From sequence record PP925821.1: a stretch of 45,057 nt of DNA; one strand, 5' to 3'. The position numbers and the translations under genes are program-made. This DNA is from Escherichia phage Eeyore. The notes beneath the pieces are model-generated. The model was not told the origin of the DNA. It ran no database searches and saw only the letters and a program-made list of their open reading frames with translations. Positions 27,336 through 29,323 of the stretch are shown here, one piece after another (position 1 is the stretch's first letter; every line of letters begins with the position of its first letter).

Positions 27336-29282
27336 ATGCAGGCCAGCAATAACAGCGAGGCCGACATTTTTATCTATGACGAAATCGGGTACTGGGGCGT
27401 AACGGCGAAACAGTTCGTCAATGATCTCCGGGCACTTGGGGACGTCACCCACATCAACCTTTATATCAACTCGCCAGGTGGTGATGTCTTCGACGGTATT
27501 GCTATTTATAACGCGCTGAAGCACCACGGCGCGGCGATTACCGTGCATATCGACGGTCTCGCGGCCTCCATGGCCTCGGTGATTGCGATGGTAGGCAATC
27601 CGGTCATCATGCCTGAAAACACGATGATGATGATCCATAAGCCCTGGGGGTTTGCTGGTGGTGACGCGAGCGATATGCGCGACTATGCGGATCTTCTCGA
27701 CAAGGTTGAATCCGTTCTTATCCCTGCTTATGCGCAGAAAACCGGAAAATCCACCGAAGAAATTGCGGCAATGCTGGAGGACGAAACCTGGATGAACGGC
27801 AGCGAGTGCCTTGAACTGGGTTTTGCCGACCAGGTGACACCATCCCTTCAGGCTATGGCCTGTATTCATTCAAAACGTATTGAGGAATTTGAAAAAATGC
27901 CAAAAAGCATTCGCAACATGATCACCCCGCCGCGCAACACTACCCAGCGTGACCCGGTTATTACCCAGCCTCAGGCACCGCAGGCAAAAACAGACCCGGC
28001 ACCGGATGAAAATGTGATCCGCGCGCAGGTGTTGGCTGAGCAGAAAGCCCGTGTTAACGCTATCGGCGATCTCTTTGCCATGTTCGGCAATAAGCACATG
28101 GAACTGCAGAATCAGTGTGTGGCCGACCCTGATTGTTCCGTCGATAAGGCGAAAGATTTGCTGCTGGCAGAACTCGGTAAAACGGCCACGCCGTCCAATA
28201 AAACCACCCAGCCGCATATTCATGCGGGCAACGGTAACTTCGTCGCGGATGGTATTCGCCAGGCACTGATGGCGCGTGCCGGGTTCGAAGGTCAGGAGCG
28301 GGATAACGTTTATAACGGTATGACGCTGCGCGAGTATGCGCGTATGGCCCTGACTGAAAAAGGTATCGGCGTGGCCAGCTACAACCCGATGCAGATGGTT
28401 GGTCTGGCGCTGACCCACAGCACCTCTGACTTTGGCAACATTCTGCTTGATGTTGCGAACAAAGCGCTGATTCAGGGCTGGGACGAGGCGCAGGAAACCT
28501 TCGAGCAGTGGACCAAAAAAGGCCAGCTGTCGGACTTCAAAACGGCGCATCGTGTCGGTATGGGTGGTTTCCCTTCTCTGCGACAGGTTCGCGAAGGGGC
28601 TGAGTACAAGTACATCACTACCAGTGACAAAGGCGAAACCATCGCGCTTGCCACGTATGGTGAAATCTTCTCAGTAACCCGCCAGGCGATCATCAACGAC
28701 GATCTGAACCAGCTTACCGACGTACCGATGAAGATGGGGCGCGCGGCGAAAGCAACGATTGGCGATCTGGTTTACGCCATTCTGACCAAAAACCCGAAAC
28801 TCTCAGACGGAAAGGCGCTGTTCCATGCCGATCACAAGAACCTGAGCTCGGGCGCAATTTCTGTGGCCAGCCTGGACGAATCGCGCAAGCTGATGCGTCT
28901 GCAGAAGGAGGGGGAGCGAACCCTGAATATCCGTCCGGCCTACATGCTGGTGCCCGTCGCCCTGGAAACTCTGGCAAATCAGACCATCAAGTCGGCCAGT
29001 GTTAAAGGTGCAGACATCAATGCCGGGATCGTTAACCCTATCCAGAACTTTGCAGAAGTCATTGCCGAACCGCGCCTGGATGAAGCTGATGCGAAAGCCT
29101 GGTATCTGGCCGCCGCGAAGGGCACCGACACCATCGAGGTCGCTTATCTCAACGGCGTCGACACGCCATACATCGATCAGCAGGAAGGCTTCACCACTGA
29201 TGGTATCGCCACGAAAGTGCGTATTGATGCAGGTGTGGCGCCGCTGGACTATCGCGGCATGACCAAATCCTCTGGTCAGTAA
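27336..29282 (+). CDS. Prohead protease (ClpP/S49-like) fused to HK97-fold major capsid protein
   Basis: 648 aa from ATG 27336, just after the portal stop. N-terminal YINSPGGDVFDG and GLAASMASVIAM (Ser protease); C-terminal ~300 aa capsid-like. The track start at 26988 would overlap the portal by 335 nt. Confidence 0.8.
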   Translation: MQASNNSEADIFIYDEIGYWGVTAKQFVNDLRALGDVTHINLYINSPGGDVFDGIAIYNALKHHGAAITVHIDGLAASMASVIAMVGNPVIMPENTMMMIHKPWGFAGGDASDMRDYADLLDKVESVLIPAYAQKTGKSTEEIAAMLEDETWMNGSECLELGFADQVTPSLQAMACIHSKRIEEFEKMPKSIRNMITPPRNTTQRDPVITQPQAPQAKTDPAPDENVIRAQVLAEQKARVNAIGDLFAMFGNKHMELQNQCVADPDCSVDKAKDLLLAELGKTATPSNKTTQPHIHAGNGNFVADGIRQALMARAGFEGQERDNVYNGMTLREYARMALTEKGIGVASYNPMQMVGLALTHSTSDFGNILLDVANKALIQGWDEAQETFEQWTKKGQLSDFKTAHRVGMGGFPSLRQVREGAEYKYITTSDKGETIALATYGEIFSVTRQAIINDDLNQLTDVPMKMGRAAKATIGDLVYAILTKNPKLSDGKALFHADHKNLSSGAISVASLDESRKLMRLQKEGERTLNIRPAYMLVPVALETLANQTIKSASVKGADINAGIVNPIQNFAEVIAEPRLDEADAKAWYLAAAKGTDTIEVAYLNGVDTPYIDQQEGFTTDGIATKVRIDAGVAPLDYRGMTKSSGQ

Positions 29283-29304
29283 AAAACAGTCCTGACAAAC
29301 AGAT

Positions 29305-29323
29305 GCCCGTAAGGGCTTTTTTT
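29305..29323 (+). terminator. Intrinsic terminator after the capsid gene
   Basis: GCCC-GTAA-GGGC stem-loop followed by T7. Confidence 0.55.

Follow-up and report, generated by a model that had tools for sequence, protein, structure and literature searches.

In a window of 45,057 nucleotides (nt) from Escherichia phage Eeyore (PP925821.1; "the window" is this whole stretch, numbered from its first letter) we identified a plus-strand gene, 27267..29282, that joins a prohead protease, a putative scaffolding module and the major capsid protein in a single reading frame, and we consider it highly likely that this gene follows the plan of Salmonella phage Gifsy-2 and encodes the head shell of a lambdoid phage belonging to the mEp213/Flotzy/LLS group (genus Aguilavirus). 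The frame runs uninterrupted to the TAA stop at 29280-29282. Counted from the ATG at 27336 it encodes 648 amino acids (aa), in agreement with an original prediction, made from the letters alone, that a single 648-aa open reading frame (ORF) encodes a protease-capsid fusion; counted from the GTG at 27267, the start we prefer, the product has 671 aa and a mass of 73.2 kDa. Residue numbers below refer to the 671-aa form unless marked as belonging to the 648-aa form, the offset between the two being 23 residues.

Profile searches placed the protein, over nearly its full length, in families already curated for this architecture. It scored 996 bits against NCBIfam NF045540 (ClpP-like prohead protease/major capsid protein fusion protein; cut-off 475) across profile positions 2-652 of 652, and 428 bits, below the cut-off of 525, against NF045541, a second type of prohead protease/major capsid fusion; PHROG 133 matched the fusion full length (aa 14-670). 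Thirty-three complete E. coli chromosomes contain the fusion region, and in all ten of the rows listed among these matching genomes the name assigned by the Prokaryotic Genome Annotation Pipeline (PGAP) was ClpP-like prohead protease/major capsid protein fusion protein. Protease and capsid were encoded in one frame at each of the 84 related loci examined in phages, prophages and viral contigs, and a scan of viral contigs showed that they encode 579 or more relatives. When 1.84 billion representatives of clusters at 50% identity were searched, 8,513 matched with E-values of 1e-30 or less; most of the 150 representatives listed were 640–700 aa long and 36–60% identical to the query in a single match from about residue 18 to 670, and more than 100 clusters at 50% identity cover nearly the whole query. 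Among plaque-forming phages the 1988-nt region has DNA identities of 98.5–99.4% with mEp213, mEp043, Flotzy and LLS (99.4% for both mEp213 and mEp043), and the Eeyore and Flotzy proteins are 100% identical. This is a genuine, well-conserved gene, and its design is already known, from the 2010 description of Gifsy-2, from a curated NCBI family and from RefSeq naming.

Domains of the fusion protein

An AlphaFold2 model built on an alignment of 97 sequences, which included cluster representatives and extended to 34% identity, had a mean predicted local distance difference test score (pLDDT) of 87.4 and contained three folded parts with disordered linkers between them; a model built on 32 close homologs (all at least 82% identical) reached a mean pLDDT of only 39.7 and was discarded. 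The first folded part, aa 21-191 (27327..27839, plus strand), is a ClpP-like (MEROPS S14) prohead protease domain with pLDDT values above 90. It matched Pfam CLP_protease (aa 8-168 of the 648-aa form, E-value 7e-40), scored 228.5 bits against NF045542 (ClpP-related head maturation protease domain; cut-off 120), and matched solved ClpP proteins in the PDB both by sequence and by fold, with template modelling (TM) scores of 0.77–0.83 to the target. A Foldseek search of the PDB with the whole model returned ClpP chains for all 50 matches listed and was uninformative on the capsid domain.

Alignment with ClpP assigned the catalytic positions to Ser101 (codon 27567-27569), His124 (27636-27638) and Glu173 (27783-27785), all on the plus strand. 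Ser101, which lies in GLAASMAS (motif GxAASMA), and His124, in IHKP, were invariant in 97 of 97 sequences with identities to the query down to 34%, and Glu173, which aligns with the catalytic Asp of ClpP, was conserved in 80–95% of 120 sequences. The protease had been predicted to be "ClpP/S49-like", and it is the ClpP half of this label that holds: the S49 model TIGR00706 SppA_dom scored 21.6 bits against a cut-off of 155, and Pfam Peptidase_S49 gave no match at an E-value of 0.01 or less. S49 enzymes use a Ser-Lys dyad, and the invariant His124 fits a Ser-His active site of the ClpP type. Judged by its sequence, the fusion protease belongs to S14 (ClpP-like) and not to S49.

The protease domain is followed by a segment (27840..28007, plus strand) with two short helices (aa 192-221, pLDDT 72–76) and a disordered Pro/Gln-rich linker (aa 222-247, with pLDDT below 50 at aa 222-243); this segment was gap-rich and weakly conserved among 120 sequences. 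The second folded part is a three-helix module at aa 248-306 (28008..28184, plus strand; helices at 248-271, 278-286 and 292-306, pLDDT 93–97), a candidate scaffolding ("delta-like") domain that is also common to fusions carrying an S78 protease. The model of this second fusion family, NF045541, aligned only to aa 199-648 of the 648-aa form, and the alignment with the fusion protein of Rhodobacter phage RcHotPocket began at aa 249 (aa 226 of the 648-aa form), with 33% identity onward. As relatives with an S78 protease align from about aa 249 onward, the three-helix module travels with the capsid domain and not with the protease. Such behaviour would be expected of an HK97-like delta/scaffolding domain, and together with the AlphaFold2 model it supports the delta/scaffold role that had been proposed for the region between protease and capsid. 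No sequence similarity of the module to the HK97 delta domain was detected. Immediately downstream, aa 307-324 (KTATPSNKTTQPHIHAGN; 28185..28238, plus strand) form a disordered, indel-prone junction, with pLDDT below 50 at aa 314-322, that is variable and carries insertions in Gifsy-2 and other relatives. We regard this junction as the putative maturation-cleavage region; a literature search found no experimental cleavage sites for the fusion family.

The third folded part, aa 325-671 (28239..29279, plus strand; 37.8 kDa), is the major capsid protein domain. Pfam PF25209 Phage_capsid_4 matched aa 338-645 of the 648-aa form with an E-value of 6e-60, and PF10124 Mu-like_gpT gave a weaker match to the capsid part (1.9e-9). 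In the PDB, a profile of the C-terminal part matched 8rkc/8rkx (1.4e-11), which are Mu GpT-domain capsid proteins, and 9jod (7e-10), also a capsid protein, all of them solved structures with the HK97 fold, and BFVD models of viral major capsid proteins matched the domain with TM scores of up to 0.83. The AlphaFold2 model places a long helix at 481-508 within the domain. By these profile and model matches the capsid domain is of the Mu gpT/Phage_capsid_4 type with an HK97 fold, which bears out the HK97-fold C-terminus of the original prediction.

Gene boundaries, intergenic hairpins and the decoration gene

Upstream of the fusion lies a lambda-family portal gene (25823..27322, plus strand; Pfam Phage_portal_2, and 455.6 bits to TIGR01539). 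Three candidate starts have been used for the fusion: ATG 27249 (PGAP), GTG 27267 (the mEp213 record and most gene callers) and ATG 27336 (27336..27338, plus strand), the choice of the original prediction. With either of the first two, the fusion overlaps the portal gene in a different frame by 56–74 nt, the overlap being the last 56 nt of the portal gene in the case of GTG 27267. We prefer GTG 27267, based on several features that point the same way. A Shine-Dalgarno sequence, AAGGAGG (27255..27261, plus strand), lies 5 nt 5' of this GTG, within the 3' end of the portal gene; ATG 27336 lacks one. Of 40 distinct versions of the N-terminus in relatives, 38 retain a GTG here together with a Shine-Dalgarno match of 6 nt or more. 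ATG 27336 is present in enterobacterial relatives (38/40) and absent from Gifsy-2 and Pseudomonas phage BR144a, both of which have Ile in place of Met24, the residue it encodes in Eeyore. Trp21, encoded 5' of ATG 27336, was invariant in an alignment of 25 sequences, and the alignments to PHROG 133 and to most cluster representatives start at residues 14-20. The 671-aa form is also the one used in the mEp213 record and in the gene calls of six of the seven closest protein clusters. The 648-aa ORF was therefore correctly described, but its likelier start, probably the GTG, lies 69 nt upstream of the ATG that had been chosen. The additional N-terminus is basic (residues 1-20, isoelectric point 12), and residues 1-16 are disordered in the AlphaFold2 model.

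Two hairpins separate the fusion gene from the next gene downstream. Hairpin 1 (29305..29323, plus strand; −7.9 kcal/mol, z −2.35) is terminator-like, with the stem and loop GCCC-GUAA-GGGC followed by U7, and it was annotated as a rho-independent terminator by the depositors of mEp213 and mEp460. Its stem and T-run were invariant and its loop variable in 40 distinct related versions, and a Pseudomonas relative has a 9-pair hairpin at the same position. An intrinsic terminator had been predicted here, and the hairpin with its U7 is indeed present; however, a consensus promoter/terminator scan, which requires at least five pairs, listed no site at 29305, the stem of hairpin 1 consisting of four G-C pairs.

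Hairpin 2 (29335..29352, plus strand; CAGCCCC-GCAA-GGGGCUG, −15.7 kcal/mol, z −4.1) starts eleven nt past the U7 of hairpin 1, beyond an A/U-rich spacer, and is separated by 3 nt from GGAG (29356-29359), the Shine-Dalgarno sequence of the decoration gene. Because MAFFT with RNAalifold misaligned this hairpin and recovered only its inner pairs, we folded each sequence singly instead: 17 of 18 related versions had a hairpin at this position, and the eighteenth, in which the structure was incomplete in the folded sequence, has by eye the stem CGGCTCC/GGAGCCG. The stems differ by lineage, with both sides altered (CAGCCCC/GGGGCTG, ATGGCCCC/GGGGCCAT and CGGCCC/GGGCCG, and in Gifsy-2 CCGGCACG/CGTGCCGG), and such changes on both sides of the stem point to a selected RNA structure. 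An Rfam search over 27100-29800 found no match. That hairpin 2 stabilises the message of the decoration gene or affects its translation would be a guess.

The downstream gene itself (29365..29691, plus strand) encodes a head decoration (cement) protein of 108 aa, which agrees with the separate DUF2190-like decoration gene of the original prediction. The protein matched PF09956 Phage_cement_2 (formerly DUF2190) with an E-value of 1.8e-22 and 80.1 bits (threshold 24) over profile positions 2-103 of 103, as well as PHROG 122 "head decoration" (4.7e-39), and in the PGAP annotation its counterpart appears as a DUF2190 family protein. A single-sequence PDB search with the decoration protein gave chance matches to amicyanin only.

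Two further ideas arise from the ends of the fusion gene, and we offer them as speculation, since it is rather unlikely that either is correct. First, hairpin 1 with its U7, the A/U-rich spacer and the covarying hairpin 2 that abuts the decoration Shine-Dalgarno sequence may together, as a conserved intergenic module, control the capsid-to-cement protein ratio post-transcriptionally, e.g., as a processing site that leaves the capsid mRNA protected at its 3' end and the decoration mRNA at its 5' end. Alternatively, the basic extension at the N-terminus, whose codons lie within the portal gene, may couple synthesis or assembly of the fusion to the portal. We found no description of either idea for the fusion family in the literature.

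A proposed assembly pathway and its alternatives

The pathway that we propose is modelled on Gifsy-2, HK97 and lambda. It builds on the gene structure, domain identities, catalytic-residue conservation, Gifsy-2 homology and synteny found in this analysis; its cleavage position, copy number and timing, the scaffolding role of the middle module and the terminator activity are inferences. The polypeptide consists, in order, of a short basic tail, the ClpP-like S14 protease, the Pro/Gln-rich linker, the three-helix candidate scaffolding module, the flexible junction and the capsid domain. A T=7 procapsid would form from about 415 copies that assemble together on the lambda-type portal, with protease and scaffold directed inward. 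The crowded protease domains would then become active, cut the N-terminal ~320 residues (~35 kDa) from every subunit and degrade them, and the resulting shell of ~38-kDa mature subunits would expand during DNA packaging. Trimers of the 108-aa cement protein are predicted to bind the expanded shell in the manner of lambda gpD. Within the late operon, hairpin 1 and its U7 may serve as a weak intrinsic terminator or as a 3'-end stabiliser.

Several points weigh against this account as it stands. The start codon of the fusion remains a choice among candidates, even if GTG 27267 is the likelier one. By alignment, the third catalytic residue is Glu instead of Asp and is itself conserved in only 80–95% of sequences. 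With only four G-C pairs in hairpin 1, real termination at that site is doubtful, and all the more so because late transcription of lambdoid phages is antiterminated. Lastly, the Gifsy-2 gene has been studied experimentally, while the Eeyore head is predicted from sequence.

We weighed the proposed pathway against three other explanations. The one that survives best, although we think it improbable, is a nested gene in the style of lambda C/Nu3 or Mu I/Z, in which an internal start would give a protease-less product, either scaffold-capsid or capsid only, that supplies most of the shell subunits, so that the protease is carried by a minority of them. Such an arrangement would avoid one protease per shell subunit, which is unusual by comparison with HK97, and there is an in-frame ATG at 27897 (Met211), invariant among close relatives, with AGGA 10 nt upstream. 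This AGGA is however a weak Shine-Dalgarno sequence, no internal start with a strong one was found anywhere in the gene, and in 120 diverse sequences Met was not the majority residue at position 211, the commonest being Ala. Moreover, by our own estimate, 415 propeptides of 35 kDa would take up ~18,000 nm3, roughly one third of the space inside a T=7 procapsid, which makes one protease per subunit physically possible.

Less probable still is that the ClpP-derived module is a dead enzyme retained only as extra scaffold, with cleavage left to a host protease or absent altogether. Catalysis by the module is a prediction here, and the Glu at the position of the catalytic Asp of ClpP could be taken to favour this explanation; however, the domain passes the NCBIfam model for head maturation proteases, and the invariance of Ser101 and His124 across the 97 aligned sequences is as expected of an active enzyme and makes loss of activity unlikely. 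The weakest explanation, that separate protease and capsid genes were joined artefactually by a frameshift or sequencing error, as the original prediction had itself considered, or by an assembly error, has as its sole basis the separate genes of lambda and HK97, found no support in our searches and is of negligible probability, an artefact being excluded by the conserved single frame in all 84 related loci of independent phages, prophages and viral contigs, besides the 33 complete E. coli genomes, the plaque-forming relatives, the more than 100 matching clusters and the families curated for the same architecture. We therefore retain the fusion gene, translated as a whole, with a protease on every shell subunit, as the preferred explanation.

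Annotation, genome context and comparison with known systems

In public phage records (PV340537.1, PV340538.1, JQ182733.1 and others) the fusion is labelled "head maturation protease", or in two records "terminase protein", and nowhere under the match do these records name a capsid gene. As a result of this mislabelling the phages appear to have no capsid gene, and the practical value of the present analysis is one of annotation, in that it concerns a capsid function hidden in phage GenBank records. Otherwise little would change, as the architecture is published, curated and correctly named in RefSeq E. coli genomes. According to the host fields of their records the phages of the mEp213/LLS/Flotzy group infect E. 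coli K-12, and they could be a handy system in which to study the assembly of a shell with a protease on every subunit.

The window as a whole resembles a complete lambdoid genome in a prophage-like order. Base 1 of the mEp213 record, presumably at its cos site, falls at position 23012 of the window. The structural half (23001-45057) is 95–97% identical to Flotzy, LLS and mEp213, and the early half (1-23000) is mosaic, its best match (Flotzy) covering only 59%. The G+C content is ~0.55 except for dips at 10001-11000 (0.45), 19001-20000 (0.40) and 38001-39000 (0.45), where regulatory regions or acquired accessory genes may lie. A near-identical prophage in E. coli 027_SK3 carries two PGAP pseudogene calls, in the portal gene (3464-4987, "missing N-terminus") and in the gene for tail assembly protein T (9865-10128, "missing C-terminus"). 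A frameshift between G and T of the tail chaperones is known from lambda, and the T call may reflect such a frameshift rather than a defect.

The closest counterparts of the Eeyore gene are those of mEp213, mEp043, Flotzy and LLS, in which gene 5 is essentially the same gene; the mEp213 record has an annotated terminator at the same place as hairpin 1. The next comparison is with Gifsy-2. Its tripartite capsid gene is the subject of Effantin et al. (2010, Virology 402:355), who reportedly describe an N-terminal ClpP-like protease, a central domain of ~200 residues with a possible scaffolding function, and a C-terminal capsid protein. The product of this gene, STM1034.3n, has a ClpP-like protease, a central domain and a major capsid domain in the same order as in Eeyore, and is 62% identical to the Eeyore fusion over residues 13-669; the ~107-aa Gifsy-2 cement protein STM1034 is 46% identical to the Eeyore decoration protein. 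The two phages also share the gene order of large terminase, W-like adaptor, lambda-family portal, fusion and cement, and an intergenic hairpin with a T-run that is followed by a second hairpin. They differ in that Eeyore has E. coli as host and 38% of the fusion residues are not the same, and in that the junction ahead of the Gifsy-2 capsid domain carries an 8-residue insertion and the Gifsy-2 N-terminal extension is a different one, lacking a Met where Eeyore has ATG 27336. The Gifsy-2 cement protein is reported to be trimeric and in the role of gpD. The Gifsy-2 capsid has T=7 geometry, and the capsid-prediction study that gives this value obtained no HK97-fold capsid protein for Gifsy-2 (PMC8814770).

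More distant are the S78-protease/capsid fusions of NF045541, which include RcHotPocket gp10 and its counterpart in Shewanella phage 1/44 and which have a homologous scaffold module and capsid domain. RcHotPocket gp10, annotated as "major capsid and protease fusion protein", likewise matches Phage_capsid_4 and is followed by a Phage_cement_2 gene, but its N-terminal protease is a Peptidase_S78 domain of the HK97 gp4 type, unrelated to ClpP. In RcHotPocket (locus 1763-3805) as in Shewanella phage 1/44 (1694-3760), then, scaffold, capsid and Phage_cement_2 are joined to a different protease domain, and the occurrence of the same scaffold and capsid with an unrelated protease indicates that the protease part has been swapped in evolution.

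In HK97 the scaffolding (delta) domain is fused to the N-terminus of the gp5 capsid protein, and within the procapsid a protease of the phage cuts it off. By analogy, Eeyore would share with HK97 an N-terminal scaffold on an HK97-fold capsid protein that is removed by the protease; it differs in that the HK97 protease, gp4, is of the S78 family and is encoded by a separate gene, and in that HK97 has no decoration protein, its subunits being cross-linked. With lambda, Eeyore shares the terminase, W-like adaptor and portal genes around the fusion, a genome in the same size class as that of the T=7 Gifsy-2, and a cement protein predicted, as reported for Gifsy-2, to be trimeric and to take the role of gpD. 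The lambda protease gpC is an S49 enzyme nested with Nu3, and E stands as a gene of its own with D ahead of it, whereas in Eeyore the protease is of the S14 family and is fused to scaffold and capsid, and the decoration gene follows the capsid gene. The original prediction that one gene replaces the lambda C-Nu3-D-E head genes can accordingly be kept for three of the four: the Eeyore fusion takes the roles of C, Nu3 and E, and that of D falls to the separate gene downstream.

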